Below, in pieces: positions 9,412 to 53,260 of a DNA stretch of 64,000 nucleotides. A model generated the notes under the pieces. The model was not told where the DNA came from. It was given only the letters and a program-made list of their open reading frames with translations, and ran no database searches. Every line of letters starts with the position of its first letter. Position 1 is the stretch's first letter. The position numbers were made by a program, and so were the translations under genes. Source of the DNA: Myxococcota bacterium (GTDB lineage Bacteria; Myxococcota_A; UBA9160; UBA4427); contig JAWKRW010000005.1 of the NCBI GenBank assembly GCA_041389445.1, positions 242,243 through 306,242 on the forward strand, written 5' to 3'.

Positions 9412-9520
9412 GATGGTACGATTCGCCCCGTCGATCCGATCCGACGGCCGCTGCAGGCCTAACGCGCCGGGCGATCGCGATTCGATCCCGTGAACGAGAC
9501 GACCGGGGGTTTCCCTGCCG

Positions 9521-12500
9521 ATGCCGATCCTGCTGCTCCTCCGACTCGCCCCGGCCCTCCTGGTCCTCCTGGTCTCCTCCTCCGCCCAGGCCGCCGGTCT
9601 GCAGAGCCGGTTCCTCCACCAGGGAAGCGCTTCGCCCGCGACCCAGGGCTGGACGGCCGTCGGCGTCTATCCAGGGCAGGCGGTCGTGGACCAGGGCGTG
9701 CCCGCGTGGAACATCGCCGATACCGGCACGGCGAGCGGCAATCTCGGCTACTACCTGCAGACGCCCACCGCGGCGGACATCGCGCGGGCGCGTCGCGTCG
9801 GCTGGACGCTGCGCGTCGTCCTCCGCGAGGTTCCGCCGACGAGCGGCGGGACCGTCCTCGGTCGGGCGCCCAACTACTCGGCCATGGCGGAGGTCGCGAA
9901 CGGTGCGCGCGCCTGGTCGCTCAGCTTCGGCAACGAGGCCGGGACGGGACGCATGCAGGTCCTGCTCGGCGGGACCACGACGACCCACACGCTCTCGTCC
10001 TCCGGCTATCACCTGCTCGAGCTGACCTACGTCCCCCAGACGAACAGCGTCGAGCTCCGCGCAGACGACGTCCTGTTGACGGAGGGATGGACCGGGGCCG
10101 CTTCGACGAGCACTCGCGTGATCTTCGGGGCCGGCGCCAGCGCGACGACGAACGAGGCGAACTACAACCGCGTCGAGTGGCTCGTCGGCGTACCCGACTG
10201 CAGCGACGGTCTCGACAACGATGGCGACGGTCAGGTCGACCTCGCCGACCGCGACTGCTTCGACGGGGAGGATCCGGGCGAGGCGACGCTCCCTCCCACG
10301 ACCGGCGACATCGCGTTCCTGCAGTACCGGTTCGACGACCACGACGGGTTCGGATTCGTCGTGCTCTCGGATCTCGCGGGCGACGACCCGTCGACGCCGG
10401 GCGTCGACGAGCGCGCGAGGATCCAGTTCACCGACGAGGGCTGGAACCTCTTCGGACTGCGCTTCGACGCCGACCGCGGCAGCGACAAGACCGAGCACAC
10501 CTGGGTCTGGACCGCGCCCGCCGCCGGCGTCCGCGCCGGGACCGTCATCAACTGCCAGGTCGGCTGCACGCTCGGCACGATCCAGGCGCCGACCGGGACC
10601 GACCCCGACCCGAACGTCCCCGGCGAGCCCGAGGAGTCGACGAACGAGATCGTCAACCTCGACAACGACCTCGGCGAGCAGCTCTTCGCCTTCCGGGGGG
10701 ATCGCAATCGACCGGTTCCGCTCTACGCGCTCAACGGGCGTCCGTGGGTCCCGCTCGCCGGGGCCGTCGACAAGCACGAGTCGGAGGTCCCCGTCGGACT
10801 CGTCAACGGACAGACCGCGATCAGCCTCCAGCAGGCGGCGGGCGAGGGCGACAACGGTCGCTACGGCCCCCGGACGCTCACGGGCACGCCGGCGCAGATC
10901 CGCGCGGCGATCAGCAACCCGGCCAACTGGGTTCTCGACAACTCCTCGAGCTTCGCGTTCCAGGCACCGAGCTGGTGGGCCGTCAACGTCATTCCGGACC
11001 TCGCGCCCCGCGTCGAGCCCGGTCCGCTCGGCAGCTCGATCGTGGCCTACGCCCAGGACGCGACGAGTCCCGCCGTCTCGCCCGGCGTCGAGCTGATCCT
11101 CTCGGATCCCGACACGCCGCCGCAGCTGCTCGATGCGACCGTCTCGGTCTCGTCGCGCTTCGGCGAGACGGCGGCGACCGTCACGGGAACGGGGCCGTCC
11201 CGCTTCGTCCAGATCGAGTCGACGGACCTCGACGTCGCCGACCTGACCGTCCGCGTCAGCGACGGTCGCTTCACCCGCGAGCATCGCCTTCGCTACTACG
11301 CGCGCTCGCCCCTGAATCCGGGCGCGCTTCCGCCCCTGACGCACAACGGCATCGCCGACGCCTCCTCCGCGCTGCCCTTCCAGCTCGGCGGCGAGGACTA
11401 CATGATCGTCGCCAACGACGAGCGCAACGGCATCGTCGACGGCCTGTTCATCTACGAGCGCAACGCCTCGGGCGCGCCCCTCAAATGGGTCGACCTCTCG
11501 GTCTGGGCCGGATGGCTCTGGTTCATCGGGATCACGGACCCGCCCTGGGAGCTCGACCTCGAAGGATCGCTCAGGACGACGAATCCCGATCGGATGTGGT
11601 GGATCGGATCGTCGAGCAACAACGACGACGGGCTGTGTCGCCCCCAGCGCTTCGGCCTCTACTCGACGCAGCTCGTCTCGGGATCCGAGGGTGCGGTCGA
11701 CTTCGGCGACCTGCTCGGCTCGTCGATCGATCGCGACGTCGCCTTCTACGGCTTCCGCAACGACGTCGGCTTCCAGTTCCTCGACTGGGATCAGGCGGGC
11801 GGTCACGGCCGCGGCGCGAATCACTACGGATTCGCGGTCGGTCAGCAGTGCCGCGTCGACACGTCGATCCTGCCGGGCGGCTTTCCGGTTCCGCCGGTTC
11901 CCGCCTGGAGCCCGAAGCGCGACGACGGCTTCAACATCGAGGGATTCGCGCTGGCGCCGAGCTCGCAGACGACCGCGTTCGTCGGATTCCGTGCGCCGCT
12001 CGTGCCGCATTACAAATCGGGTGGAAGCGCGCGGAGCCGCGCGCTCCTCGTTCCGATGGTCATCGATCAGTCCTATCTGACGGACAGCCCGTTCCAGTCT
12101 CCCGGGCAGGATCTCGACTTCGGCACGCCGATCGAGCTCGATCTCGACGGTCGATCGATCCGCAGCATCGAGCGCAACGACGAGGACGAGTACGTCATCA
12201 TCGCGGGCTCGACCGGCGAGCACGGTCCGCCGCCCGACGATTTCCGCCTCTACACCTGGACCGGACGCGATCCCGACGTCACGGGCGATCCCGCGGACAT
12301 GCCGGTCATCCACTCGGCCGATCTCGCCGCGGCGCGCAACGGATTCGGGAGCTTCGAGTCGATCGTCGAGGTGCCGGACGACCTCGACGGCGCGGAGCTC
12401 CAGCTGCTGCTCGACGACGGCACGGCCTTCCTCTACGACGAGCTGATCGATGCGCTGGGTGGCGACTCGGGCCTGAGCCGGGCGCTCAAGACGCTGCCCC

Positions 12501-14878
12501 AACCCTTCCAGGAGTTCCGCAGCATGCGGGTCCGGCTCGACGCCGCGACCTGCTGGGCGAGTCACGACGGCGGGGCCACCGTCTTCGCCAGCGCCGACGC
12601 ACAGGCCGTCCAGAACGCCGTTCATCGGGCGGGGAGCGGTGCGACGGTCCGCATCGCCGGTCAATGCGAAGGTGGGAGCTATGTCGTCCTCCCGAGCGGC
12701 CTCAAGAGCGCCACGAGCGCGGCGCTCTACCTGATCGGCAAGAACCTGACGCTCGAAGGCGGCTACGCGCCCGGCTCGAACGGGACCGGACTCGCCGGCA
12801 TTCCCGACCCCGTCGCGCATCCGACCCGCCTCGCCGGCGGCGACCCGCGCTTCGCGCTCTCGCTCGACGCGTCGAACGTCACGGTCCGTGACCTCGTGCT
12901 CGGCGGCACGCCTCTCGGGCCGATCGCGCTCCTGAACGGATCGAACATCGTGTTCGACGGCGTCTCGATCGAAGGCGACGCGGATCTCGATCTCGTCGGG
13001 GACGACGTCGACAATTGTCCGAACGCCCCGAACGCGAGCCAGGCCGACCAGGATGGCGACGGCGTCGGCGACGCCTGCGATCTCTGTCCCTCGGTCTCGA
13101 ATCCCGATCAGCTCGACGCCGACGGCGACGCACGCGGCGACGCGTGCGAGGCCTGCCCCGGGATCTTCGATCCGCTCGACTTCGATCGGGGCGGCCTCGG
13201 CAGCGCCACCGTCGGCGATGGGACGCCCGACGCCTGTCAGTGTGGCGATCTGACCGGCGACGGCGGCCTGCTCGCCGGGGCGGGCCAGGACGTCGATCGG
13301 CTGCGCGACGCGCTGGCGGGTCGCGGGCTTCCGCTGGACGCGGCGGGCGCCGCGCGGTGTGCCGTCTACGACGGATCCCCGCGCTGCGACATCCGCCAGG
13401 CCGTCGTGCTCGCGCGCGCGCTCGCGACGCCGGCCGGCGGGCCCGGCGTCGGGGCGGCGTGTGGCGGCGCGAATCCGCGGCCGATCCATCAGTGGACCTT
13501 CAACGCCGGCCCGAGCGATCTCGTGGGCGGCGCGGACGGGACCCTGATGAACGGCGCTGCGGTCGTCGGTGGCGCACTCGAGCTCGACGGCATCGACGAC
13601 TACCTCGTGACGCCGCCGCTCGCGCGCAGCATCGGGCCGCGCACGCTCGTCGTCTGGCTCGAGCTCGCCTCGACGGCCCAGCGCAGCGGCGGGGCGCTGA
13701 CGCTCCAGGACGCGAACGGCACCGACGTCTTCGACGCCATCGTCTACGGCGAGAACACCGCGAACCGCTGGCTCAACGGCAGCGACTTCGCGACGCGCTC
13801 GCACCTCACGTCGCGGGGGAACGACGGCGCGCTCGAGACGGCGCTGCAGCCGCAGACGATCCAGATCGTCGTTCGCTACGAGGCGGATGGGACGATCCGG
13901 ATCTTCCGCGATGGCCAGCCCTACACGACCGCGCCCTACGCCTCGGGCGCTCCGCCGATTCGCTACGAGGCGGGTCGCGCGAACGTCCTGATGGGTCTCC
14001 GACATCAGGACGTCGCCGGAACGACCGGGAGCCTCGCCGGGAACGACCCCTATCTCGCGGGGCGCATCGATGAGGCCCGGATCTACGCGGTCGCCCTCGA
14101 CGACGCGCAGATCGAGCGGCTCTTCGTCGAGGGGCCCGTGCCCTTCGATCCGATGCCGGGGCTGCCGGCGCCGAAGCTCTGGCTCGACGCGTCGGCCTTC
14201 GACTCGATCGACGTCGCGGGCGACGGATCGGTCATCGAGTGGCGCGATCGGGCGAACGGGCTCGCGCTGCGCGCATCCGTTCCGGGCGAGCGGCCGCGAC
14301 AGCCCCTGGGCGGCGGGATGCTCGATTTCGACGGCGTCGACGACCACCTCTGCTCGAGCGATCCGATCGACCTGCGAGCGGGCGCGACGATCTTCGTCGT
14401 CGCCTCCAACGACCGGCGGAAGAGCTACCAGGGGCTCTTCAGCCAGCGCTCCTCCCGCTTCGAGAACGCGGACGTCGAGGTCTACTGGCAGGCGGGGACC
14501 GGCGGGAGCGGCAATCTCGTCTACGCCGCGAACCGCCGTCAGTCGGGCGGCAACCCCTCGTACTTCGTCTCGGCCAACGCCCCACCCAACGTCCCGACGC
14601 GCTATCTGGTGACGATCGAGGCGACCAGCGACGCCGCACCGGGCGTGCTTCGGACGAATCGTTCGACTCGTGCGAACACGCAGATCCTGGACAACCATGC
14701 GTTCTTCCCGGATCCGGTCTGGCCGGTCTGTGTCGGATACGGCGTGGGAACGACGCCGGCCGGCAACACGCTCGAGGGCGGATTGGCCGAGGTCCTCGTC
14801 TTCGAGGGCACGCTGACGCCGAGCCAACGCGACGACGTCGAGGCCCATCTGATGGACAAGTGGGAGGTGGCGCGATGA
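9521..14878 (+). CDS. Giant secreted multidomain surface protein (MopE-like metal-binding motif, TSP type-3 repeats, two LamG/concanavalin-like domains)
   Basis: 1785 aa. Signal peptide MPILLLLRLAPALLVLLVSSSAQA. A DCSDGLDNDGDGQVDLADRDC motif lies at about 10.2 kb. TSP3-like repeats lie at about 13.0-13.2 kb (DNCPNAPNASQADQDGDGVGDACDLCPSVSNPDQLDADGDARGDACEACP). Two LamG_3-like modules are present (..GALELDGIDDYLV.. and ..GMLDFDGVDDHL..). Confidence 0.9.
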   Translation: MPILLLLRLAPALLVLLVSSSAQAAGLQSRFLHQGSASPATQGWTAVGVYPGQAVVDQGVPAWNIADTGTASGNLGYYLQTPTAADIARARRVGWTLRVVLREVPPTSGGTVLGRAPNYSAMAEVANGARAWSLSFGNEAGTGRMQVLLGGTTTTHTLSSSGYHLLELTYVPQTNSVELRADDVLLTEGWTGAASTSTRVIFGAGASATTNEANYNRVEWLVGVPDCSDGLDNDGDGQVDLADRDCFDGEDPGEATLPPTTGDIAFLQYRFDDHDGFGFVVLSDLAGDDPSTPGVDERARIQFTDEGWNLFGLRFDADRGSDKTEHTWVWTAPAAGVRAGTVINCQVGCTLGTIQAPTGTDPDPNVPGEPEESTNEIVNLDNDLGEQLFAFRGDRNRPVPLYALNGRPWVPLAGAVDKHESEVPVGLVNGQTAISLQQAAGEGDNGRYGPRTLTGTPAQIRAAISNPANWVLDNSSSFAFQAPSWWAVNVIPDLAPRVEPGPLGSSIVAYAQDATSPAVSPGVELILSDPDTPPQLLDATVSVSSRFGETAATVTGTGPSRFVQIESTDLDVADLTVRVSDGRFTREHRLRYYARSPLNPGALPPLTHNGIADASSALPFQLGGEDYMIVANDERNGIVDGLFIYERNASGAPLKWVDLSVWAGWLWFIGITDPPWELDLEGSLRTTNPDRMWWIGSSSNNDDGLCRPQRFGLYSTQLVSGSEGAVDFGDLLGSSIDRDVAFYGFRNDVGFQFLDWDQAGGHGRGANHYGFAVGQQCRVDTSILPGGFPVPPVPAWSPKRDDGFNIEGFALAPSSQTTAFVGFRAPLVPHYKSGGSARSRALLVPMVIDQSYLTDSPFQSPGQDLDFGTPIELDLDGRSIRSIERNDEDEYVIIAGSTGEHGPPPDDFRLYTWTGRDPDVTGDPADMPVIHSADLAAARNGFGSFESIVEVPDDLDGAELQLLLDDGTAFLYDELIDALGGDSGLSRALKTLPQPFQEFRSMRVRLDAATCWASHDGGATVFASADAQAVQNAVHRAGSGATVRIAGQCEGGSYVVLPSGLKSATSAALYLIGKNLTLEGGYAPGSNGTGLAGIPDPVAHPTRLAGGDPRFALSLDASNVTVRDLVLGGTPLGPIALLNGSNIVFDGVSIEGDADLDLVGDDVDNCPNAPNASQADQDGDGVGDACDLCPSVSNPDQLDADGDARGDACEACPGIFDPLDFDRGGLGSATVGDGTPDACQCGDLTGDGGLLAGAGQDVDRLRDALAGRGLPLDAAGAARCAVYDGSPRCDIRQAVVLARALATPAGGPGVGAACGGANPRPIHQWTFNAGPSDLVGGADGTLMNGAAVVGGALELDGIDDYLVTPPLARSIGPRTLVVWLELASTAQRSGGALTLQDANGTDVFDAIVYGENTANRWLNGSDFATRSHLTSRGNDGALETALQPQTIQIVVRYEADGTIRIFRDGQPYTTAPYASGAPPIRYEAGRANVLMGLRHQDVAGTTGSLAGNDPYLAGRIDEARIYAVALDDAQIERLFVEGPVPFDPMPGLPAPKLWLDASAFDSIDVAGDGSVIEWRDRANGLALRASVPGERPRQPLGGGMLDFDGVDDHLCSSDPIDLRAGATIFVVASNDRRKSYQGLFSQRSSRFENADVEVYWQAGTGGSGNLVYAANRRQSGGNPSYFVSANAPPNVPTRYLVTIEATSDAAPGVLRTNRSTRANTQILDNHAFFPDPVWPVCVGYGVGTTPAGNTLEGGLAEVLVFEGTLTPSQRDDVEAHLMDKWEVAR

Positions 14879-15963: not shown

Positions 15964-16092
15964 GTTCGGACCTCCTCATCGCTGGGATGGCGCGATCGAC
16001 GGTCGGGGCGAGCGCGGGACCGTCGGCGCCCGCCGCCTGCTCGCACGGGCGCTCCGCGAAGCGCTTCGGTTCCCTGCCGGCGCCCGCCCGCC

Positions 16093-16140
16093 CGGCCGCC
16101 CGGCCGCCCGGCCGCCCGGCCGCCCGGCCGCCCGGCCGCC
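16093..16140. repeat. Octanucleotide tandem repeat (CGGCCGCC)x6, preceded by (CGCC)x3
   Basis: Counted directly in the sequence. The 8-bp unit is not a multiple of 3. It lies in the intergenic region between the STAS gene and the 16314 ORF. Confidence 0.9.
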
Positions 16141-16313
16141 CGCACGGGCCACGGCCGCCCGACGCGACCCGGCCTGGTCGATCCGCCCGCCGGAGCCCGT
16201 CCCGCCCGATCGGACGGGGGCGAGTCCCGTGGCATGGCCATCCGACACGGTTTGGACTACTCAAGTCAGTCGATAGTTCCGATGGACACTACGCTTCGAT
16301 CGGAGAGTCCGCC

Positions 16314-16823
16314 ATGGCCTACCTCGTCCGCCGCCGCGGCGAGCGCGTCGAGATCCGGGAGAGCTGCACGACGGAGCGCGGCCCGCGCTCGCGGACCCTC
16401 GCGCGCTTCACGGGCGCCCTGACGCCCGCCGTCCTCGCGACCGCGGAAACGCGGGCGACGCGTCCCTTCGACCCGCGTGCGCTCGTCCGGCGGGCCCGCG
16501 CGCTGGGGATCCCGGTGCGCCTGCAGTCGCCGGAGCGGGAGGCTCGCGCGCTCCTCGCCCGGCTGCGCCGCGGGGATCCGGTCGACCCCGTCGTTGCGGG
16601 CCTGCTCTTTCGCGTGCTGGAGGGGGTCGAGCGTCGACCCGTGCCCGAGGCGCTCGCCGAGGTCGCGGACTGGGTGGGTGCGCCGCTCGCCGCGCGGGGT
16701 GCCGCGCTGCGCGACCTGCTCGAGACCTACGGTCGGATCGAGGCCGCCCGACCGCCTCGGCGAACGCGGGCGCGGCGCTCCTTCCCGCGCTTCTCGTCGG
16801 TCGCGAAGGCCGCCGCCTCGTGA
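16314..16823 (+). CDS. Hypothetical protein (no recognised domain), upstream partner of a nucleotidyltransferase
   Basis: ATG 16314. The 169-aa product is Arg/Ala-rich and contains no His. Its stop overlaps the next gene's GTG as GTGA. Coding status is supported mainly by that coupling. Confidence 0.5.
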   Translation: MAYLVRRRGERVEIRESCTTERGPRSRTLARFTGALTPAVLATAETRATRPFDPRALVRRARALGIPVRLQSPEREARALLARLRRGDPVDPVVAGLLFRVLEGVERRPVPEALAEVADWVGAPLAARGAALRDLLETYGRIEAARPPRRTRARRSFPRFSSVAKAAAS

Positions 16824-17380
16824 GCGAGCCGTCGCTTCCGGAGAAGATCCTCTCGATCGATGCGCGGCTCGAGGCGGCTCGTCTCCCGCATGCCTTCGGC
16901 GGGGCGCTGGCTCTCGCCTACTACGCGACGCCGCGGGCGACGGTCGACATCGACGTCAACGTCTTCGTCGACGCCGATCGCTCGGACGAGGTCTTCGACG
17001 TCCTCGCTCCGCTCGGGATCGAACGGCCGGACGCGCGCGAGGCGGAGCGGCTCCGGCGGGACGGCCAGGCGCGTGTTCACTGGGGGCGTACGCCGATCGA
17101 TCTCTTCTTCGCCTACGACCCCTTCCACGAAGCCTGCCTCGCGCGCCGTCGGGTCGTCCCCTTCGGCGAGGGCGAGACCATCCACGTCCTCTCGGCCGAA
17201 GACCTCTTCGTGTTCAAGGCGATCTTCGATCGGGACAAGGACTGGCGCGACGTCGACGAGCTGGTCTTCGCGATGAACGACGAGCTCGACGCGACCTGGA
17301 TCCTCGATTGGCTCGAGCGCATCGTCGGCCGGGATGACGCGCGTTGGACGCGCGGATCGACCGCGCTCGCGAAGCGTTGA
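16820..17380 (+). CDS. Pol-beta-superfamily nucleotidyltransferase (AbiEii/MNT-like fold)
   Basis: NTase signature FGGALALAYYATPRATVDIDVNVF (G-[GS]-x(n)-D-x-D) plus downstream acidic residues. 186 aa. Confidence 0.75.
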   Translation: MSEPSLPEKILSIDARLEAARLPHAFGGALALAYYATPRATVDIDVNVFVDADRSDEVFDVLAPLGIERPDAREAERLRRDGQARVHWGRTPIDLFFAYDPFHEACLARRRVVPFGEGETIHVLSAEDLFVFKAIFDRDKDWRDVDELVFAMNDELDATWILDWLERIVGRDDARWTRGSTALAKR

Positions 17381-17425: not shown

Positions 17426-18286
17426 TCATGGGGAGGACGCGTCATTCGAGGTCCGGATTCCGCGCGTCGATCCGAAGGGCACGTCGCCGGCCAGCATGAC
17501 GCGATGCATGACGCGGCGCTCGCGGTAGTCGGCCACCGCGTAGTGTTGCGTACGGCGGTTGTCCCAGAAGGCGATCGAGTCGCGACGCCAGCGGAAGCGA
17601 CACTGGAGTTCGGGCTGCTTGACGTGCTCGTAGAGGCGCCGGAGCAGGGATTCGCTCTCGGCTTCGGGCAGTCCGACGATGCGGTCGACCCAATTGGGAC
17701 TGACGAAGAGGAGCTTGCGTTTCGTCTCGGGATGCACGCGGACGATCGGGTGGACGACGGGCGGCGCGATCTGCCGGTCGCGGGCGTAGGCGTTGTCGAG
17801 GCGCTCGACGAGGGCCATCACGCGGGTCGCCGAGTGCTCGGCCGAGAGACCGTCGAGGCGCGCGCGCAGATCGGGCTCGAGCGCGTCGTAGGCCGCGGCC
17901 ATGTCGGCCCAGAGCGTGTCGCCGCCGCAGGCCGGGACGTGGACCGCTCGCAGGATCGCGCCCATGGGCGGGGTCGGCATGAAGGTGCTGTCGGCATGCC
18001 AGACGTCGGTGCCCGAGCCCTTCGGATTCGACTGATCGACGACGGTCAGGCCGGGCGTCTCGGTCGACTTGTTTTCGAAGACGGGGAGCTGGATCTCGCC
18101 GAAGTGGCGCGCGAAGCGGATCTGGTCTTCGGGCTCGATCGCCTGGTCGCGGAAGAAGAGCACGCCATGCTCGAGCCAGGCGCGGCGGACCGCTGCGACG
18201 GTCCTCGCGTCGAGGTCGGCCCGCAGGTCGATGCCCCGGATCTCGGCGCCGATCGTCGGCGTCAGGGGTCGGATGTCGAGCGTCAC
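17426..18286 (-). CDS. TauD/TfdA-family Fe(II)/2-oxoglutarate dioxygenase
   Basis: Family motifs are present: WHADSTF (the HxD iron ligands), VHPETKRKLLFV and WDNRRTQHYAV. GTG 18286 is preceded by GGGAGG. The ORF is open to 18319. Confidence 0.9.
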   Translation of the reverse strand: MTLDIRPLTPTIGAEIRGIDLRADLDARTVAAVRRAWLEHGVLFFRDQAIEPEDQIRFARHFGEIQLPVFENKSTETPGLTVVDQSNPKGSGTDVWHADSTFMPTPPMGAILRAVHVPACGGDTLWADMAAAYDALEPDLRARLDGLSAEHSATRVMALVERLDNAYARDRQIAPPVVHPIVRVHPETKRKLLFVSPNWVDRIVGLPEAESESLLRRLYEHVKQPELQCRFRWRRDSIAFWDNRRTQHYAVADYRERRVMHRVMLAGDVPFGSTRGIRTSNDASSP

Positions 18287-18332
18287 GCAGGCCTCCCACC
18301 GAGCGGGGGGCGGGACCATCCCGGCCGCGCGC

Positions 18333-20426
18333 TCAGGGCATCGGATCGGATCCGTTCCAGAGCGTGCCGAAGACGATCGGTAGCCGCTCGTCGCCCTGCT
18401 CGAAGCCGACGAGGACCTCGTCGCCGATTTCGGGCACGCGCGCGCTCCCGAGGTTCCCGATCGCCTGGGCGACCCGGACCCAGGCGCTCGAGCGCTCGTC
18501 GGTCGAGCCGCTGCGATCCCAGAGGAAGCGCACGCGGATGCGGCCGAGCGAGTCGGTGAAGACGGTCTCGCCGGCGGGGCCCGTCACGATCGCGGTCTGG
18601 ATCGCGGGGATGCTGGGCCGCGGCGTCAACGCGGGCGGGCGGTAGGTCTTCGTCGAAGGAATCGCTTCGAACGCGTTGGCGTAGCCGTAGCAGCGGCGGG
18701 TCTCGTCATAGAGGGCGACGTGGTCGACGCGGATCGCGACGAAGTTGCCGCCGAGGCCGTTGGCGGTCGCGTCGGTGGCGCGGAAGACGTGGCCACCGCG
18801 GAGTCCGGGCAGGTTGCTCGTGCCGACGGCCACGTGCGACGCGAGCTCGGCTCGGCTCGCGACGACGGTCGCGCGTGCGGCCGTCTCGGCCGAATCGGGC
18901 TCGGCGACCGCGTACTGGTAGATCTCGCCCGTCGCGCCGAGGCCGGCGCGAACGACGGTGCTCTGGACGACGATCCCGCCCGGGTCGGCGAGCGAGAAGC
19001 CACGGATCGTCGCGCGCTCGCTGTAGGAGCGGTGGAGTCGGGCCAGCGAGGTGAAGCGGTTCGACGCGACCGAAGGACCGGCGAGGTGGCCGCCGTAGGT
19101 TCCGGTCGGACCCGAGCCGTAGCCGGCCGTGGAGTCGCCGAGGACCATCTGGCCCGCCGCGTTCGCGTAGTAGTAGATGCCCTCCTCCTCGAGCAGCCGA
19201 CTGACGAAATCAAGGGCCGTCTCGTCGTACTGCATCGCGAACTCGAGCGTCGGCGGGTTGCCCGCGATGTTGGCGGCGAGGCCCGAGGCAGGCAGACCGG
19301 CGTCGTCGAAGACGAGCTGGACGAGGTCGGGCGCGTTCGAGCCCTGACGGATCGAATAGCCGGCGTGGAGTCGCAGCCGCGCGGCAGCGGGCTCGATGCG
19401 GACGAGATAGGTCGTCAGCCCCGCGTCGGACGCGACCGGACCGAACTCGGTCACGACGCCCGTGAAGGTTTCCGTCAGTCCGCCGCGCGTGATCGTCGAT
19501 GCGGCGCCCTGGTCGATGAAGCCGCTCTCCGAGAGTCCGGCGGAGGCCTGGAAGAGGACGGCACGGAACGGCATCTGGGACATCGCGTCGCGCCCCAGGA
19601 TCGCGACGACACCGGTCTGCACCTTGCCGCCGACGGCCAGCCCGACCGTCGCGCCCTCGCCCGTGAGCGAGCAGTCGCCCTGGATGGGCAGATCGAAGGG
19701 CAGCCCATCCCGCAGCTCGGGCACGCGTGCGAGATCGGCGAGGTCCTGCACCGCCGCACCGCGCGCCTCGCCCGGCAGCCCGCGATCGCCCTTCGCCCCC
19801 GTCGCACCCGGCGGTCCGGTCGGGCCTGTCGGCCCGGTCGGACCAGCAGGCCCCGCCGGACCCTGCGCCCCGGTCGCGCCAGGCGGGCCGGCCGGCCCCG
19901 CCGGTCCGATCGGGCCTTCGGGGCCCGCCACCGGATCCGCACAGATCCAGGTTCCCGCGATCTGGCGCAGGCTCTGCCCTTCGCCGCAGAGGGGCGCCAG
20001 GCGATCCGGAGCGAGGGCGCCGACCGCGACGTCGTCGGCCACTGCGGCGCGCAGCGCGTAGGCGTCGCTCGCGAGTCGCACGCGGGGCGCCAACGGATCG
20101 CCGCCGACGACGATCTCGAGCCAGCGCTCGAGCCCGTCGAGCAGATCCGGCGAGAGGGGCGTCAGGCTGCCGAGCTCGAGCGACACGAGCCCGCCCGCGA
20201 CGGGGACGGCCGCATGTGTCTCCTCCCAGAGGAAGTTGTCGCCCGTCGCGTCGTCGTAGATCCGGAACCGCAGGTCGACGGCGCCGTCGAGGAGCTGGCC
20301 GGTCGCGTCGCGAACGACCGCTTGATAGTGGAGCAACGCGGGAGTCGTCGCGCGCGTGGCCGCGGCCGGGAGGAGGAGCGCGAGCGCGAGCAGGAGCATG
20401 GGGATCGGGCGGATGCGGTCTGTCAT
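18333..20426 (-). CDS. Secreted chimeric protein: signal peptide, N-terminal domain, collagen-like GXY tract, VgrG-like gp27 plus gp5-OB module (no beta-helical spike)
   Basis: ATG 20426 gives [26 protein letters not shown]. 18 GXY triplets follow. VgrG hallmarks then appear: [40 protein letters not shown] and [52 protein letters not shown]. The start overlaps the upstream stop as ATGA. Confidence 0.85.
19765..19926 (-). repeat. Collagen-like triple-helix repeat coding tract (18 x G-X-Y)
   Basis: [54 protein letters not shown], read in the frame of the 18333..20426 CDS. Confidence 0.85.
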
Positions 20427-20953
20427 GGGTTCGGCTCCCGGGCGAGGCGGCGCCAACGGATCGGACCGGCGCGACGAAGACCGGCGGACCGTCGAAGGCA
20501 GCCGGACCGTCGAAGGCCGGCGAGCAGGGCGAGGGCGAGCGGAAGCGCATGAGCCTGCGACGGCTCGGGCACGCTCTGGGCCGCGAGCACGCCGCCGATG
20601 CCGCCGACCCAGCGCGGATGGCCTCCGGCATCGACGAGTGCCGCGGAGCCCGCGGTCTGGCCGAGACTCACGGCCTGCTGCGCGTTCGTCGAGCCGGTCC
20701 AGCTCGCTCCGCCGCCGTCGACGCCGGGCGCGATCAGCTCCTGCGCCGTCGCCGAGCCGCTCGCGAGCAGGCCGATCCCGAGTCCGATCCCGATGCCGAG
20801 GGCGAGCCCGAGCGCGCGCGCTGTGCGGATCGTGCGGCCGAGGCCGGGCGCGCACCGCTCTCGGGCGAAGAGCGATCCCCCGCGGACGGCTGCGCGAACC
20901 GGCCTGCGGCGTGCGGATCGAGCGCTGGAGCCGAGGTCGGATCGGATCGGCAT
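20423..20953 (-). CDS. Small PEP-CTERM protein with an expanded basic tail
   Basis: Signal-like segment [26 protein letters not shown], a short Gly/Ala-rich mature part, then [23 protein letters not shown]. The tail carries (GLRRSG)(CLRRSA)(GLRRAG), encoded by an 18-bp x3 repeat at 20465-20518. Confidence 0.6.
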
Positions 20954-20963
20954 AGCAGCGATC

Positions 20964-22031
20964 CTAACAGGAACCGATCGGTGGGCGGAAGCGGGAAGGC
21001 GGACGCCGCGCGCGACCCGGCGTCGCCGCGAGCAGGAGGAGCAGGCCGCCCGCGACCAGGCCGCCGCCGATGGCCGGCTCGGGGAGATAGGCCGTGACGC
21101 CGTCGACGCCGGTGCAGATCAGGCTCGCATGGGACGTCCAGTGCATCGTGCCCGTGAAGGACGCGAAGTCGGAGGCGATCGTGAGGGGGTTGTCGTTGGC
21201 GTCGAAGACCGTGAGATCGCCGCCCGACTCGCGGATGGCGAGCCCGAGGCGGATCGTCTGGCCCGAGACGCGACCGCGGATCCGGGTCTGGCCGAAGTCG
21301 ACCGGGACGGTGAACTCGACGAGCGGCCCCGACTGCTCGATCGTGACCGGAACGACGACCGGCGTCGGATCGATCGGATCGCAGGTATCGCCCGTCTGCA
21401 CGGCGGTCACCGTCCAATCGCTGCCGCTCAGGTTGCCGGGCGTGCCGGCGCCGGCGCGGCTGAAGGACCAGGTCTCGGTTCCGGCGCACGCCTCGGGCCA
21501 GTAGAACTCCCAGCCGAGCGTTCCGCTGAAGAGGTCGCCGGCGGCGTTGCGCGTGAGCGACGAGTCGGCCGGGTCGTAGAGCGTCGCCCCCCCGTCTTCG
21601 AAGACCTCGAAGCCGAGCTCGAGATCGGAGCCCGATCGCCTGCCCTCGATCGGCGTCTGACCGGGGAGACCGCCCGGTACGTCGACGGCGAAGAGACCGC
21701 CCGATTCGAGGATGTCGACCCCGTTCGCCTCGGCGGGGCCGAGCGGGTCGCCGCACGTGTTCGAGATCTCCTCGACCGTGATCTGCCAGCTGCCGGTGAG
21801 CGATTGGGCCGAGGCCAGGCTCGCGGCTCCCGCCGCGCCCACGACCAGCATGACGCCGAGGACGCCCGCGCGCGCGCCATGCCGCTTCGACCTCGTCTGC
21901 GGCGCCGCTCCGCCGTCTGCCTGCCCGGGCAGGGCCGATTCGCGATCGGGCATCCGCCGACGGCCTGGGGCGGCTTGGATCAGGGCGCGCAGATGATCCT
22001 GGGTGGATCGGGCGCGCAGGTCGGCGGCCAT
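20964..22031 (-). CDS. PEP-CTERM sorting domain protein
   Basis: Signal peptide AGVLGVMLVVGAAGAASLASAQS. C-terminus AYLPEPAIGGGLVAGGLLLLLAATPGRARR. GGAGGG lies upstream of ATG 22031. ATG 21953 is an alternative start. Confidence 0.75.
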   Translation of the reverse strand: MAADLRARSTQDHLRALIQAAPGRRRMPDRESALPGQADGGAAPQTRSKRHGARAGVLGVMLVVGAAGAASLASAQSLTGSWQITVEEISNTCGDPLGPAEANGVDILESGGLFAVDVPGGLPGQTPIEGRRSGSDLELGFEVFEDGGATLYDPADSSLTRNAAGDLFSGTLGWEFYWPEACAGTETWSFSRAGAGTPGNLSGSDWTVTAVQTGDTCDPIDPTPVVVPVTIEQSGPLVEFTVPVDFGQTRIRGRVSGQTIRLGLAIRESGGDLTVFDANDNPLTIASDFASFTGTMHWTSHASLICTGVDGVTAYLPEPAIGGGLVAGGLLLLLAATPGRARRPPSRFRPPIGSC

Positions 22032-22185: not shown

Positions 22186-23220
22186 TCACCGGGGTCGGTT
22201 CCAGCCTGGGCAGCCGCCGGATCGACGGGATCGACGGGCGGGTCCATCGGCGGCAGTCCGGCGTCGCCGGCGCAGTCCGGCCCAGTGGATCAGCAGTCCG
22301 CAGGCGGCAGATGAAGCGCAGAGGGCGTCGGGCTCGGGGAGATAGGTCTCGATGCGATCGATGCGCGCGCCGACCGAGGCCGCGGGCGCATCGTTGTTGG
22401 TCGAGGTCGTCACGAAGATGGCGTCCTCGAGGGCGTCGAGCGTGTCGAAGCTCGGATGGGTCGAAACCGGCGTCACGAAGAGCTCGTCTCCCACGCGCAG
22501 GCTGCCCTGGAGCTCGCGCACATCGAGGTCGAAGCGCAGCTCGATCTCGAAGGCGGCGCCCCCGCGAATCGCCGCATCGGCCGTCGGCGAGAGGAAGACC
22601 TGTTGATAGCCGCCGAGGATGCCCGGCCCGAGGTTGCTGATCGCGATGCGCAGCGAGCCGCTTCCGAACGAGAGCAGGTAGGCCGAGACGCCGTTGCCGA
22701 CGGTCAGATCGCGGAACGTCAGCGCGACCGTCTGGAAGGCGCCGTTGACGGGGTCGTTGGTGACGGAGTAGCCGTCGAAGCGGCCATAGAGGCCGATCGT
22801 GCCGGTCGACGGGGCGGGCCCGATCGCGAGCCGGGCCCCCGCGGACTGCAGATTCGCGGCGGAGCCGGGGGCCTCGACGACCGGGATCGAGAGGCCGCTT
22901 CCGTCGAAGGTCGGCGCGGAAGGCAGCGGATCGCCGAGCTGGAGCGCGTCGAGGCCTCCGAGGCCGTTCGAGTCGACGTCGGGGGTCGTCGGAAAGCCGG
23001 TTTCGCCCGTGAAATCCTCCACCCAGCCCGGCTCGCCGAGATCGTCGAGGAGGTCGACGGCCCGGGCGGTGGGGGCGATCGGCGCGAGGAGCAGGGCGCT
23101 GGCGAGGAGCCGTCCGAGTCGGCGTGACGTCGCGACCGAGGCGGCGAGACGGCCCACCCGATCGACGGCGCGGGGCATCGAGCTCGAGGTCGCGATCAGT
23201 CGCGGGTCAGGGTTCATCAT
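22186..23220 (-). CDS. PEP-CTERM sorting domain protein
   Basis: Signal-like segment RRLGRLLASALLLAPIAPTARA. C-terminus TYLPEPDALCASSAACGLLIHWAGLRRRRR. AAGGA lies upstream of ATG 23220. ATG 23178 is an alternative start, and the ORF is open to 23382. Confidence 0.75.
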   Translation of the reverse strand: MMNPDPRLIATSSSMPRAVDRVGRLAASVATSRRLGRLLASALLLAPIAPTARAVDLLDDLGEPGWVEDFTGETGFPTTPDVDSNGLGGLDALQLGDPLPSAPTFDGSGLSIPVVEAPGSAANLQSAGARLAIGPAPSTGTIGLYGRFDGYSVTNDPVNGAFQTVALTFRDLTVGNGVSAYLLSFGSGSLRIAISNLGPGILGGYQQVFLSPTADAAIRGGAAFEIELRFDLDVRELQGSLRVGDELFVTPVSTHPSFDTLDALEDAIFVTTSTNNDAPAASVGARIDRIETYLPEPDALCASSAACGLLIHWAGLRRRRRTAADGPARRSRRSGGCPGWNRPR

Positions 23221-23520
23221 CGACGTCCTTTCCAACTCATCGATCGGATGCATGCGTCGATCCCGGTGGATTAGTCGGACATAGCACGCGCCTCGGCGAT
23301 CGGCGATTCGGGGAGGGGATCGGGGCCCGACTCGCGGTCGACCTTCGACGCTCGGCGCCGATTCCCGAGATCCGAGCGGCATTTCGAGGACGCGAGTCGA
23401 AGCCGGTACGAGGTCGAGGGACCGATCGACCCGTCCGTCCGGCCGATTCCGTGGCGATCGGAGGCGCGCCCAGTCCGACTGCCGCTGGGCCCGGCGGGAC
23501 GGCCCCCCCGCCCCCGAATT

Positions 23521-30653: not shown

Positions 30654-30941
30654 GTCGCGGTCTTTTCGGTACGCCCGCCGAGCCAGGGGCCGAGGAGTGC
30701 GGCCGAACGCGTCGGGCGGGAGACGCCGGCCCCCGATCTCGCCGCGAGCCGGATCGCGCCGCTCGTCCGTTCGCCTCTCGAGCGGGGCGGAGACCGTGAT
30801 CCCGCCGCCGCGCCACGAGCAACTCGCCCGCATCCCGCTCGCACCTGCACTCGCGCTTCAAGTGGCTCGAACGGCTCGACGATCGCGCAATCGCGACCGA
30901 ACCGAAGCGGCCAGCGGCTTGAGCGGGGCCGGGGGGAAATC

Positions 30942-33900
30942 GTGATGCGACCGGCGCCTCGTCTGCTCGTCCTCTCTTCGATCCTGTCCATCGGCCTGAC
31001 CGCCTGCAGCGCCGGCCCTTCCGATCGGCCGGCAGCCCAGGCCGCGGTCGAAGAGTCGTTGGAGACGGTCGAGCTGGCCCTGCTCGAGCGTCCAAGGACG
31101 CCCCGGGTACGCGTCGAACGCATGCCCGATCGCATCGCGTTCCTGCCGATGCTCAACCGCGGCAGCCGACTCATCCATCCGATGCTGCTCGACGGTCCGA
31201 GTGAAACGCTCTCGGTGCTCTCCCGATTGGTCGACGGAATCGAGAGCGTCCGGCCGGACGTCCTGGCGGGGATCCTGCGCGAGTCGGGCCGATCCGATTG
31301 GTTCGAATCGCCGACTCCCTTCGTCTATGACGATTCCGTGCTCGAGATCGTCGCGGATCGGACGGGGGCGGGCACGATCGCCTGGAGCGAGATCGGTCCG
31401 GACGACGCCGTCGTGATGACGGCCCGGGCCATGACGCCGGGCGCGAACGATGGGATCTGGAAGGACATCCGCATCGAGCCGGGACCGGGACAATCCATCG
31501 ACCGGCACGTCTTCGACGTGCCGCGGAAGCTGATCCTCGCCCTCTCGTCCCGCATGGCGCTGCGTTCGACGACGCCGGTCTCTGCCGAGGAGCGTGCGCG
31601 CTTCGACGAGGCGATCGAGTCGGCACGGGAGCAGATGTGGACGGGCCAGGCGGGGCCGCTCCGACGAGCGGAGCAGGCGCTCGCGGACCTCGCCTTGCGA
31701 TACCCGGGTCGACCCGAGCCGTGGATCGAGCTCGCGTTCCTACGCGTCCTTCGGCCCATCGTTCTCGGCGAGGAGTTCCGACACGAGCTCATGCTGGATG
31801 GACCGAATCCCGCCCGTCACTTCGCGCTCCGCTTCGAGGATCTCGACGAGGCGCAGCGCGCGCGCCTCGCATTCATCGATCATGCCTACGTCGGTGAGGG
31901 AGACCGCCTGGCGGAATATCTGGCCTTCCTCGACGGGCTGCCGCCGCGGGCACCCGAGCGCGTCCTGTTGGCGTTCCTCCAGGAGCGGGAGCACAAGGAC
32001 CGGTTCCGGATCCCGGCCGGCGTCCTGCCTGGGTACCTCGGCTGGGTCCTCACCGAGCTCGCGGCCATCGAGGGGCGGAGCGAGCAACGCGCCTGGGCGT
32101 GGCAGCTGGTCCAGGATCCGAAGCATCGGCAGGCGCTCGTGCTGGTCCCGCTCGTGACGCATCACGTCCGGCGTGAAGTCGACTCGACGAGCCGCTGGTC
32201 GATGCGGTTGCCGGTCCGCCGTCCCGACCTGGCGCAGGCCGGAATCGAGGCGCTCGAGGTCTGGCGCCATGCCTGCCTATCGCTCGAGGCGGCGGACCGG
32301 CGTTCGGCCTGCGTCGAACGGGTCGCGGCCTTCGTCCGGACCTACGCGCCCGACGCCGAAGTCGATGAAACGTCGCTCCGTCAATCGGCGTCGTGGCAGC
32401 GGCTCGCGGATGGTCTCGTCGTGCCGCTGATGGAAGCGAAGCTGCCGGAGGCGGTCGCGCATTCGCTGGCGGAAGACGCCATCCAATTCAGGGATCCCGG
32501 CTTCGGCGGAATCCTCCATCTGCTCGAGCGTGTGATCGAGGAGTCGAACGCGATCGCGAGCCTGGTCGACGACGATCGCCCGATCCGGGCCTCGGTCGAG
32601 TCGGTGCTGATGACTGATGGCCGCCGGCTGCTCGGCGGAGACGTCGATTGGATTCTCGCCGCGGCCGAGCAGCCGATGCAGATCGGCCGCATGCGGGGAC
32701 GGGCGGACGAATGGGAGCCGTACCGCGATGCGCTGCAGGCCTTCTCCGATCGATACCTCTTCCGTGACTTGATGGAGATTGACGCCTGGCTCGCGCAACG
32801 CGGCCGCCGGCGGATGCCGGAAGAGCGCGAGAAGAAGCTGTTGGCCGACCACCAACCCTATGCGATGCCCTACGTCTCGGTCGCGCATCGGCAGCTCCGC
32901 AAGCGGGGCCGTCTGTCGCGTGCGCAGCAGCTCGAACGACTGGTTCCGACGATGGGCCGCCTCGTCGCCGAGGCCCATAACCTCGAGCGCAAGGCCGGCG
33001 AGCTGGGTCTGGCCTACGACGGTCTGCAGCGACAGATGGCGCGGCGGCCCGACACCTTCGCGGTCGAGATTCGTGACAAGGTGATGAAGGACCTCGGGCG
33101 TCCGAAGGACGAGCGTCTGGCGGCCCTTCTCGAAGGGGAGGCCCTCTTCGCGCTGGACCACGAGATCGAGGCGCGGATCGCGAATCTCGCCATGGAGCTC
33201 GAGCAGTATGACGTCGCTGCTGCGCGTTATTCGCACATGCGTCAGCGGAGCCTGTTCCAACGGCAGGGATGTCACGGCCTCGCGGAGATCGAGCGGAGGA
33301 AGCAGCGCCCGGATGCGCTCGAGGCGGTCATGCTGGACTGCGCCGCCTCGTCCGTCAGCAACTTCGACCGCGCGTCCGCCTGGACTGTCGTGGCCGGTCA
33401 ACGGCGCGATCAGGGCCGGCTGGTCGAAGCGCTGGAAGCGAGCCGGGCGGCGCGCGGCGTGATCGGCGACGCGAGTCACGTGCTGCTCTCGCAGGGATAC
33501 ATCCTCGAGCTGATGGGGGATCACGCGGCTGCCGAAGCGGTCTATCGGCTCAACGACGCCACTTACGACGGAGCCAGCGACGGACGCATCGCGGTGGCGA
33601 TCATGGCCCTCCGCCGCGGGCGACCGGCAGAGGCGATCGAGATCGTCCGCCACCTCGCAATGGAACCCCGCTACCACACCTACGATCTCAGCGACACCGC
33701 GCGACTCGCCTTCCTCGCCGCCGGCGATCTCGCGGGGTTCCGACCGTTCGCGCTGGGGTTGGGACAGCAGGGTCTCATCTCGCTGGCCGAGGCCGAATGG
33801 CAGGTCGATCGAAATCTCGACGAGTCCATGCGACTGCTCGACCTGGCAGCGGAGGGCGACACGGAATGTGCCTGCGTTCCGCTCAGGCGCGCTCGAATCC

Positions 33901-34466
33901 TGCGAGAGGCGGGTCGAGTCGCGGAGGCCCTCGATGCGGCGAAGGTGGCATGGACGCGACAGCAGAACTTCGTCATCGAGCACGAGCTCGTTCGGGCCAG
34001 GATCGCAGCCGGCGATCTCGCGTGGGTTCGTGACCACGTGGCGCGCTCCGATGCCTGGAATCCCGACGGTTGGCTCGCGCGGGTGATGCTCGCCGCGGCC
34101 GAGGGCGACCTCGCGGGAGCGCGCCGTCAGGTCGCCTCGTTCGCCGAGCGCATGCACCCGGTCGATTCGACGTCCAAGGTCAATTGGGCGTGGCAGCTCC
34201 GGCCATTGCTGCTCTTCGAGACGACGCTCGTCGATCGGGTCGGAACGCATGCGGACGACCAGCGTCTGCTCCGGCTGCTCGAGTTCGCGACGAACGGGCT
34301 CGCCTACGACGCACGGTTGTGGGAGGCGCTGAGTATGGTTCGGCGCAAGCTGGGGGACCAGGCGGGCGCCGTGCTGGCCGAGCGTCGCATGCTCGCGCTC
34401 TGGCCCCATCGGGACGGCGCCGCGCCCGTCGCGTCTTCGTCCGACTCGGTGGATTCCCGGACCTGA
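30942..34466 (+). CDS. Large putative lipoprotein (1174 aa), helical/TPR-like repeats toward the C-terminus
   Basis: Signal peptide plus lipobox (LLVLSSILSIGLTAC). The protein is long and alpha-helical in character, with TPR-like stretches (..AAEAVYRLNDATYDG..RGRPAEAIEIVRHL..). No specific family was recognised. Confidence 0.8.
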   Translation: MMRPAPRLLVLSSILSIGLTACSAGPSDRPAAQAAVEESLETVELALLERPRTPRVRVERMPDRIAFLPMLNRGSRLIHPMLLDGPSETLSVLSRLVDGIESVRPDVLAGILRESGRSDWFESPTPFVYDDSVLEIVADRTGAGTIAWSEIGPDDAVVMTARAMTPGANDGIWKDIRIEPGPGQSIDRHVFDVPRKLILALSSRMALRSTTPVSAEERARFDEAIESAREQMWTGQAGPLRRAEQALADLALRYPGRPEPWIELAFLRVLRPIVLGEEFRHELMLDGPNPARHFALRFEDLDEAQRARLAFIDHAYVGEGDRLAEYLAFLDGLPPRAPERVLLAFLQEREHKDRFRIPAGVLPGYLGWVLTELAAIEGRSEQRAWAWQLVQDPKHRQALVLVPLVTHHVRREVDSTSRWSMRLPVRRPDLAQAGIEALEVWRHACLSLEAADRRSACVERVAAFVRTYAPDAEVDETSLRQSASWQRLADGLVVPLMEAKLPEAVAHSLAEDAIQFRDPGFGGILHLLERVIEESNAIASLVDDDRPIRASVESVLMTDGRRLLGGDVDWILAAAEQPMQIGRMRGRADEWEPYRDALQAFSDRYLFRDLMEIDAWLAQRGRRRMPEEREKKLLADHQPYAMPYVSVAHRQLRKRGRLSRAQQLERLVPTMGRLVAEAHNLERKAGELGLAYDGLQRQMARRPDTFAVEIRDKVMKDLGRPKDERLAALLEGEALFALDHEIEARIANLAMELEQYDVAAARYSHMRQRSLFQRQGCHGLAEIERRKQRPDALEAVMLDCAASSVSNFDRASAWTVVAGQRRDQGRLVEALEASRAARGVIGDASHVLLSQGYILELMGDHAAAEAVYRLNDATYDGASDGRIAVAIMALRRGRPAEAIEIVRHLAMEPRYHTYDLSDTARLAFLAAGDLAGFRPFALGLGQQGLISLAEAEWQVDRNLDESMRLLDLAAEGDTECACVPLRRARILREAGRVAEALDAAKVAWTRQQNFVIEHELVRARIAAGDLAWVRDHVARSDAWNPDGWLARVMLAAAEGDLAGARRQVASFAERMHPVDSTSKVNWAWQLRPLLLFETTLVDRVGTHADDQRLLRLLEFATNGLAYDARLWEALSMVRRKLGDQAGAVLAERRMLALWPHRDGAAPVASSSDSVDSRT

Positions 34467-53247: not shown

Positions 53248-53260
53248 CGCTCGTCCCCTC

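Follow-up and report, generated by a model that had tools for sequence, protein, structure and literature searches.

A collagen-stalked, needle-less VgrG-like protein of a Myxococcota bacterium as a candidate exported trimeric fibre

The open reading frame (ORF) at positions 18333 to 20426 (minus strand) of a 64,000-nucleotide stretch of contig JAWKRW010000005.1 (Myxococcota bacterium, assembly GCA_041389445.1; hereafter the window, in whose coordinates all positions are given) encodes a 697-residue product, here called the fibre protein, in which a signal-peptide-like leader and a collagen tract precede the core of VgrG, the spike of type VI secretion systems (T6SS). With slightly better than even confidence, we regard it as a Sec-exported homotrimeric envelope fibre akin to the mosaic adhesive trimer (MAT) fibres of Bdellovibrio bacteriovorus, in which the VgrG hub would serve as a trimeric head, and not as a spike fired by a T6SS. 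We favour this explanation because of the leader, the covariation of two cysteines, the missing needle, the lack of injection-system context, the fibre-type relatives, the MAT precedent, the fixed spacing between collagen and hub, purifying selection and a partner gene. The most likely role of such a fibre would be contact or adhesion, or simply trimerisation.

The ORF starts with an ATG at 20426 and ends with a stop codon at 18333-18335. Its product consists, in order, of a signal-peptide-like leader, a beta-sandwich of ~120 residues, a Cys-flanked hairpin, 18 Gly-X-Y (GXY) triplets, a neck of ~40 residues and a needle-less VgrG core, as follows (sources in brackets; AF2, AlphaFold2; OB, oligonucleotide/oligosaccharide-binding):

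20349..20426, minus strand: signal-peptide-like leader, aa 1-26, with a basic n-region, an LLLALALLL core and a TRA↓T cleavage-type motif before TTPA (translation)
19989..20348, minus strand: N-terminal beta-sandwich, aa 27-146, distantly related to the N-domain of Bdellovibrio MAT fibres (NCBIfam, AF2)
19926..19988, minus strand: Cys-flanked beta-hairpin, aa 147-167, with C147 and C162, directly before the collagen tract (alignment, AF2)
19764..19925, minus strand: collagen tract of 18 uninterrupted GXY triplets, aa 168-221 (translation, Pfam)
19653..19763, minus strand: neck, aa 222-258, with an amphipathic helix (219-241), a conserved 'GLPF.LP' motif and C252 (AF2, alignment)
18627..19652, minus strand: gp27-like hub region of the VgrG core, aa 259-600, with Phage_GPD at 287-570 and C579 (Pfam, NCBIfam, PDB, AF2, Foldseek)
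18336..18626, minus strand: gp5-type OB fold, aa 601-697, with Phage_base_V at 625-690 and no beta-helix needle after it (Pfam, NCBIfam, PDB)

The match of the ORF to these elements is far beyond chance, with Gly at every third position 18 times over and profile E-values down to 1e-75. An earlier note on this DNA, made from the letters alone, had read the same domain order with a stop right after the OB fold, and Pfam, NCBIfam and PDB sequence searches together with AF2 and Foldseek bear it out. The uninterrupted 54-residue GXY tract that it described proves to be exactly 18 triplets (nt 19764-19925), in agreement with the junctions it placed at ~19.75 and ~19.93 kb, and the signal peptide it proposed corresponds to the hydrophobic, signal-peptide-like leader of residues 1-26. 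New to the present analysis are the membership of a large exported VgrG-like clade, the coupled or fused PEP-CTERM-like partner and the lack of T6SS context. The AF2 monomer model has a mean pLDDT (predicted local distance difference test) of 81.9 and is confident for the beta-sandwich (residues 30-120) and for the core (residues 259-697, pLDDT ~95).

The C-terminal 440 residues correspond to the gp27-like hub and gp5 OB fold of T6SS VgrG (TssI) and of their phage ancestor, T4 gp27-gp5, which are obligate-trimer folds in both. Pfam detects Phage_GPD (residues 287-570, E = 5e-40) and Phage_base_V (residues 625-690, E = 8e-12), the NCBI VgrG model TIGR03361 scores 254.7 bits against a cut-off of 186.35 (profile E 1e-75) with only positions 16-451 of its 513 matched, and TIGR01646 scores 207 bits. 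Residues 314-697 align with residues 63-457 of the 643-residue Pseudomonas aeruginosa VgrG1 (PA0091, PDB 4mtk; E = 7e-40), and the alignment runs to the last residue of the fibre protein (...LWNGSDPMP), at which the VgrG1 beta-helix starts. The same structure is the top Foldseek match of the AF2 model (E = 1e-38, root-mean-square deviation 2.7 A over 454 columns), followed by the spikes of extracellular contractile injection systems (eCIS), PVC and AFP, Mu gp44 and T4 gp27. Unlike T6SS VgrG, however, the fibre protein carries a signal-peptide-like leader and a 250-residue N-terminal extension, holds a C252/C579 pair that is absent from canonical VgrGs, and stops where the triple-stranded beta-helix needle would begin; Gp5_C, Gp5_trimer_C, T6SS_Vgr and DUF2345 found no match in it in Pfam and NCBIfam scans. 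There is no beta-helix and therefore no PAAR platform or puncturing tip, and no T6SS neighbours were found around the gene. We therefore describe the protein as VgrG-derived and not as a T6SS VgrG, because the VgrG profile is matched while the needle, signal-less cytoplasmic assembly and T6SS context are lacking, and it is probably not delivered by a contractile sheath.

The leader suggests Sec export followed by cleavage, and an AxA-type motif just ahead of 'TP.LIHYQ' is conserved in all family members. Behind it, residues 21-92 match the NCBIfam model NF053851 (Bdello_MAT_N) with E = 3.8e-6 and 26.8 bits, below the cut-off of 60; the same model is matched by 46 of 54 homologues of the N-domain at E <= 0.01 (best 4.9e-11), all likewise below cut-off, and nine of the 54 carry a VgrG core and also match TIGR03361. 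The domain is all-beta in AF2 (pLDDT about 85-90). A PDB structure search with its model returned no homologue at E < 0.02, and a search of the viral models in BFVD gave one marginal match (E = 8.8e-4, TM score 0.43-0.49) to an unnamed protein of ~117 residues, the rest being generic beta-sandwiches. Collagen-like and fibre proteins with this domain directly behind a signal peptide are widespread, in phyla that include Myxococcota, Planctomycetota, Verrucomicrobiota, Eisenbacteria, Krumholzibacteriota, Chloroflexota and Bacteroidota, and their C-termini vary from coiled-coil or S74-type ends to COLFI, fibrinogen-like and other modules. The earlier suggestion of a fibre-like N-domain is strengthened by dozens of proteins with signal peptide, N-domain and collagen and by the 46 sub-cut-off MAT matches. 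In the hairpin that follows, C147 and C162 are invariant in a 5-member alignment and AF2 places strands at 152-156 and 159-163 (hairpin 152-163), which would suit a C147/C162 disulfide.

All 21 MATs of Bdellovibrio have a conserved ~130-residue domain, rich in beta structure, immediately behind the signal peptide (Caulton et al. 2024, PMC10769870). This domain lacks a PDB homologue and is probably located at the cell surface, where it positions variable C-terminal tips, and MAT proteins have been shown to be surface-localised (PMC10769870); the words VgrG and gp5 are absent from the main text of that paper (PMC10769870). The fibre protein resembles MAT fibres in a signal-peptide-like leader followed directly by an all-beta domain without PDB homologue, in a predicted trimeric shaft and in interchangeable C-terminal modules, in that homologues of its N-domain vary C-terminally and VgrG-containing relatives end in an H-lectin, a beta-helix or Peptidase_S74. 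The last of these is the chaperone typical of S74 MATs, which relatives of the fibre protein carry although the protein itself does not. It differs in the weakness of the N-domain match, in a shaft of collagen in place of meandering beta or coiled coil, in a C-terminal module that is a phage-baseplate hub and in its host, an uncultured high-GC bacterium and not Bdellovibrio.

The collagen tract matches Pfam Collagen (PF01391) over residues 168-220 (E = 2.5e-8, 34 bits against a cut-off of 27.2), has Pro at the X position in 11 of 18 triplets, and varies among homologues between 17 and 26 triplets (regular-expression count of uninterrupted runs). Streptococcus Scl1/Scl2, Bacillus BclA, Legionella Lcl and Burkholderia Bucl are exported to the cell surface with a hydroxyproline-independent GXY tract, and share with the fibre protein a short Pro-rich tract beside a globular trimeric domain. 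Here, however, the flanking trimer is a VgrG hub and not a V-domain or C1q/TNF-like domain, the protein carries neither LPXTG nor another known anchor, and the matches to the NCBIfam Scl/Lcl models cover the repeat only, far below their cut-offs. Between the 18 triplets and the hub, the first gp27 strand lies 52 residues past the collagen end, and this spacing is 44-67 residues in about a dozen other lineages, a near-constancy that agrees with the earlier proposal that a trimeric stalk on a trimeric hub is structurally coherent. A similar junction of helix and Cys is readable by eye in exported relatives, both collagen-bearing and collagen-free. C252 of the neck and C579 of the hub occur together in 41 of 71 N-extended relatives, never singly, and in none of 48 canonical VgrGs, a pattern which is expected of a disulfide gained by the exported lineage; a C252-C579 disulfide acquired in this way is accordingly predicted from the alignment.

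The VgrG half (residues 223-697), searched against 1.84 billion cluster representatives, gave 13,226 matches at E <= 1e-3, and the best 150 of these were sorted into classes. Signal-peptide-like starts, as scored by a crude hydrophobicity heuristic and not by a dedicated predictor, were found in 58 of 70 N-terminally extended proteins (core from residue ~100-700) and in 8 of 13 'bare' cores, as against none of 58 canonical VgrGs and none of nine fragments; the top 50 ranks hold 42 N-extended proteins and one canonical VgrG. The extensions include the MAT-like domain ('FTYQGRL'/'HYQGVLRD'), IPT/TIG, PEGA, coiled coils and dockerin-like repeats. At least five consecutive GXY triplets occur in 19 of the 70. 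Like the fibre protein, 20 of the 70 stop no more than 12 residues past the OB fold; in others the chain goes on, either to a gp5 beta-helix of short length, to a lectin of the H type or to Peptidase_S74, an intramolecular chaperone, at the C-terminus. Over 55 members, the Pfam counts are Phage_GPD 55, Phage_base_V 54, Gp5_trimer_C 20, Collagen 14 and Peptidase_S74 10, so the combination of Collagen with Phage_GPD/Phage_base_V, for which the earlier note had suggested a database search, recurs in homologues and in other lineages. Four architectures illustrate the range:

P0272: signal peptide, MAT-like N-domain, GPD, OB, Gp5_trimer_C, further sequence and Peptidase_S74
P0243: signal peptide, TIG, collagen, GPD and OB, then the protein end
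P0242: signal peptide, PEGA, collagen, GPD and OB
P0128: signal peptide, N-domain, GPD, OB and H-lectin

Eight proteins of ~470-510 residues (P0142, P0331, P0342, P0350, P0361, P0365, P0374 and P0381) have a signal-peptide-like start directly before the VgrG core and no fibre modules; they end at most ~20 residues past the OB fold and represent the minimal form of the exported VgrG-like type. N-extended cores cluster strongly in a rough neighbour-joining tree of VgrG cores: for 68 of the 71, the nearest neighbour is itself N-extended. By sequence, the fibre protein belongs to a large and broad group of N-extended VgrG-like proteins with signal-peptide-like starts, and this group, which appears to be undescribed, is a more interesting discovery than the single protein. 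A literature search for collagen with VgrG, for VgrG with a Sec signal and for bacterial collagen trimerisation domains with gp5 returned nothing relevant, which, given incomplete literature coverage, is weak evidence of novelty.

The fusion recurs in six further full-length clusters: P0002 (ENA contig L004, 91% identity), P0003 (JGI contig, 57%), P0004 and P0005 (two NCBI assemblies, 55% and 49%), and P0236 and P0237, two extra 50%-identity clusters from the search of 1.84 billion representatives; the seven family clusters form one clade in the rough tree. The ratio of nonsynonymous to synonymous substitution rates (dN/dS) against the L004 gene is 0.158 overall, and by region 0.11 for the N-domain, 0.08 for the collagen tract, 0.37 for the neck, 0.18 for the gp27-like hub and 0.04 for the OB fold, the most conserved part. 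Purifying selection thus acts on every domain. The source is metagenome-type and very GC-rich, where long spurious ORFs are common, but an assembly chimera, or a decaying vgrG pseudogene that was joined to a collagen-like gene by accident, is effectively excluded because the fusion is shared at 49-91% identity by independent ENA, JGI and NCBI assemblies with intact ORFs and low dN/dS (0.04-0.18 in the folded domains and collagen, 0.37 in the neck), while AF2 is confident for both globular parts and the collagen-hub junction recurs in other lineages; the earlier argument against an assembly artefact therefore stands.

Upstream of the fibre gene and on the same strand lie three genes whose products end in a PEP-CTERM-like manner, with (V/L)PEP, a hydrophobic helix and an Arg cluster:

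20423..20953, minus strand: small gene in another frame, encoding a signal peptide, a Gly-rich domain of ~60 aa, VPEP, a hydrophobic helix and an Arg-rich tail (translation, GC3, homology)
20964..22031, minus strand: gene ending in LPEP, a hydrophobic helix and a basic tail, PEP-CTERM-like, possible operon partner (translation)
22186..23382, minus strand: second upstream gene with a PEP-CTERM-like C-terminus, YLPEP...RRRRR (translation)

The TGA of the small gene overlaps the ATG of the fibre gene (ATGA; CCCATGACA; overlap 20423-20426), and an SD-like (Shine-Dalgarno-like) GGGAG stands upstream of that ATG. The frame of the fibre ORF stays open upstream to 20855/20963, and GTG 20855 was considered as a longer start and rejected: GC3 (GC content at third codon positions) favours the small-gene frame in this stretch, which is homologous to the fused leaders described below, and the open stretch is on both grounds better assigned to the small gene. 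An 18-bp in-frame tandem duplication (GCCTTCGACGGTCCG...) lies at 20470-20520 (minus strand) in its Arg-rich tail. Pfam and NCBIfam returned no family for the two genes farther upstream, and a promoter-like site lies at 22089-22061 (minus strand), ahead of the 20964..22031 gene.

The split arrangement of small gene and fibre gene is also present on the independent contig L004, whereas in P0003, P0004, P0005, P0236 and P0237 a homologous leader (signal peptide, Gly-rich domain of ~60 residues, VPEP, helix and RRRR) is fused in frame before a second hydrophobic segment and the fibre (5' parts, L001-L003), so that the partner is coupled or fused in seven of seven family clusters. This looks like a gene fission/fusion polymorphism and possibly a polyprotein design. 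From the order of segments, both arrangements would give the same products, with the first signal peptide cleaved, the small domain outside, the PEP-CTERM helix in the membrane and the Arg loop inside, and the second hydrophobic segment would act as an internal signal peptide with its conserved AxA-type site just before 'TP.LIHYQ'. The small gene and its two upstream neighbours resemble exosortase-sorted PEP-CTERM proteins in their motif, but the tail after the helix is ~30 residues long, the motif is internal in five relatives and followed there by the second signal peptide and the fibre, and profile support is sub-threshold: Pfam PEP-CTERM (PF07589) matches the P0237 leader only (E = 0.0034, 17.8 against 20.7 bits) and none of the window genes, and NCBIfam NF038129 matches the small gene with E = 0.064. 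An arrangement in which an internal PEP-CTERM motif precedes a second signal peptide and a fibre is not known to have been described. In a Verrucomicrobiia metagenome-assembled genome (L015 6874-10125), an N-domain fibre gene carries an in-frame PEP-CTERM motif (VIPEP...LLRRKR) ~35 residues upstream of the N-domain, and the PEP-CTERM-then-fibre arrangement may hence recur outside the VgrG-containing family.

On the basis of these data, the following mechanism is proposed for the exported fibre. The leader would carry the chain across the inner membrane and be cut at TRA↓T. Homotrimerisation is expected from the two obligate-trimer folds, collagen and gp27/gp5, and the gp27 and OB core would fold and trimerise in the oxidising periplasm, stapled by the clade-specific C252-C579 disulfide. 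Collagen helices are nucleated and registered by the Scl2 V-domain, the BclA C-terminal domain and the procollagen C-propeptides; by analogy, the adjacent core, fixed ~50 residues past the collagen tract, may set the register and nucleate the 18-triplet triple helix, giving a stalk of ~15 nm. At the other end, the MAT-like beta-sandwich with its Cys-flanked hairpin would attach the fibre to a surface element of the producing cell, as proposed by analogy with Bdellovibrio MAT fibres, for which the small PEP-CTERM-like protein is the candidate; its translation is coupled here to that of the fibre protein, and in relatives it forms the fused upstream 'polyprotein' segment. The blunt, needle-less hub would then be the distal head.

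Several points weigh against this proposal. Within the clade it is often the N-terminal module that varies and the collagen-neck-hub unit that stays constant, a pattern that would suit a hub close to the cell no less well than a distal hub. The MAT N-domain match lies under the NCBI cut-off, the PEP-CTERM assignments are motif-level or sub-threshold, and no exosortase gene was seen in the 64-kb window. The collagen part of the AF2 model has a pLDDT below 50 and is unmodelled, as expected for a model of the monomer only, and the rough tree, examined for monophyly of the exported proteins, gave no single clean clade. The window covers 64 kb of a 422.6-kb contig, and a T6SS may lie elsewhere in the genome. 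Finally, the whole fibre model is drawn from sequence and prediction, from which cleavage, trimerisation, the disulfide and localisation are inferred.

The rival that survives best is the same exported trimer turned round, in which a VgrG-like hub docked on some component of the envelope forms the cell-proximal base and the collagen stalk presents the N-terminal beta-sandwich as an outward binding tip. The variable ends of fibres are usually their ligand-binding ends, and across the clade it is the N-terminal module that varies (MAT-like, TIG, PEGA, coiled coil, dockerin-like) while collagen, neck and hub are constant. Many relatives, however, add clearly distal modules C-terminal to the hub (H-lectin, or beta-helix with Peptidase_S74), the OB fold is followed by neither a membrane anchor nor a known docking motif, and the homologous N-domain of Bdellovibrio MAT fibres, which is their constant end, has been proposed to lie next to the cell (PMC10769870). 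We consider this orientation unlikely.

Somewhat less probable still is a periplasmic trimer that works not as a surface fibre but as a spacer or tether, either between the two membranes or to the peptidoglycan. A Sec leader guarantees crossing of the inner membrane only, the protein has no recognisable outer-membrane sorting signal (C-terminal PEP-CTERM, type IX secretion or autotransporter domain), its conserved Cys pair would suit any oxidising compartment, and a ~15-nm stalk with two globular ends is of the order of the periplasmic width, as estimated from textbook dimensions. Set against this, MAT proteins are surface-localised (PMC10769870), homologous N-domains stand at the start of proteins whose adhesin-type, lectin and S74 tail-spike-type modules are those usual in surface fibres, and the neighbouring genes encode PEP-CTERM-like putative surface proteins.

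We deem it quite improbable that the protein is a working spike of a T6SS or other contractile injection system encoded elsewhere, with the N-domain and collagen as cargo or threaded through the Hcp or tube lumen like a tape-measure-type ruler. The scan covered only 64 kb of the genome, the TIGR03361 score exceeds the NCBI cut-off, vgrG genes often form orphan islands away from T6SS core genes, and a collagen triple helix of ~1.5 nm would fit the Hcp lumen of ~4 nm. Nevertheless, the hydrophobic, signal-peptide-like N-terminus is absent from 58 of 58 canonical VgrGs examined, the clade-specific Cys pair suggests oxidative folding, the missing beta-helix leaves no PAAR or puncturing tip, and the other proteins in which the N-domain was found are all exported fibre proteins. 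In addition, none of ~45 window ORFs scanned belongs to a T6SS, contractile-injection or phage-tail family, and no such gene, PAAR, adaptor, effector/immunity, Hcp and Tss genes included, was found on the contigs of P0002-P0005, P0124, P0125 and P0127 (about eight contexts with the window).

Phage central tail hub or Tal-type proteins also unite a gp27-type hub with fibre modules, sometimes collagen-like repeats, in one trimeric polypeptide. The fibre protein resembles them in joining such modules to a gp27-type hub, but has them in the opposite order, its fibre module lying N-terminal to the hub, starts with a signal-peptide-like leader and has no phage genes nearby. An origin from a prophage or phage tail hub was rejected, as nothing among 50,697 phage records matches the N-domain and phage genes are absent from the window; the matches of the hub in those records are weak (27-31%) and mostly to mislabelled bacterial fragments.

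A more far-reaching extension of the exported-fibre model, which we rate as improbable at present, envisages a new class of envelope organelle, namely Sec-exported, disulfide-stapled VgrG cores in trimeric surface fibres. In the present family, the fibre and an exosortase-type PEP-CTERM anchor would be produced together or as one polyprotein, from which signal peptidase would free the fibre by a cut at the internal second signal peptide, and the collagen-stalked hub would mediate sheath-independent contact, for example the recognition of neighbours or prey as in MAT fibres.

The other scanned ORFs of the window are mostly metabolic (TauD, amidohydrolases, enoyl-CoA hydratase, luciferase-like monooxygenase, F420H2-dependent quinone reductase), with further genes for an MMPL transporter, esterases and short-chain dehydrogenases. 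The matches of a neighbouring NDH-2 gene carry mixed taxon labels, with one 'Deltaproteobacteria' metagenome-assembled genome at 81% and many from Planctomycetota at 71-79%. A gene for a TauD/TfdA-family Fe(II)/2-oxoglutarate dioxygenase (17426-18319, minus strand) begins 13 bp past the fibre stop; its position is kept on L004 (91% identity) and absent from more distant family contexts. It was considered as a collagen hydroxylase and rejected, since it belongs to the taurine-dioxygenase and not the prolyl-hydroxylase family, shows no signal peptide obvious by eye and is kept only in the closest relative; a role in collagen modification is unlikely from its sequence, and the adjacency is regarded as coincidental. 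At 9494-14878 (plus strand), a 1794-residue protein with thrombospondin type-3 repeats and a laminin-G/ConA-like domain, partially matching the myxobacterial cell-cohesion protein MtsC, is another putative large surface adhesin. A weak AbiEii/DUF6036-type nucleotidyltransferase gene preceded by an ORF with a 4-nt overlap (15987-16823 and 16820-17380, plus strand) could form a type IV toxin-antitoxin-like pair. Well-coding ORFs of 1270, 411 and 502 residues at 30654-34466 (plus), 35763-36998 (plus) and 52132-53640 (minus) have no Pfam or NCBIfam family. On the contig of P0003, ~1.5 kb downstream, a second fibre-type protein with YadA-head-like NxALG repeats is encoded (L002 4304-5302, plus strand), whose end, judged by eye, resembles the start of an S74-type chaperone, which hints at clustering of fibre genes.

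To our knowledge, VgrG and gp27-gp5 hubs have so far been seen solely as components of contractile injection machines, which are put together in the cytoplasm. If Sec export and incorporation into collagen-, lectin- or S74-bearing fibres hold true in dozens of lineages, the VgrG fold would have taken on a general role outside the cytoplasm as a trimerisation or head module, the automated label 'type VI secretion system Vgr family protein' on such genes would mislead T6SS surveys, and the concept of MAT-type fibres would reach well beyond Bdellovibrio. By analogy with known collagen-nucleating domains, the fibre protein may offer a compact natural trimer domain of this kind, together with an unusual split-or-fused PEP-CTERM arrangement. 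Should the organelle proposal prove correct, the T6SS and phage spike fold would have a second life outside contractile machines.

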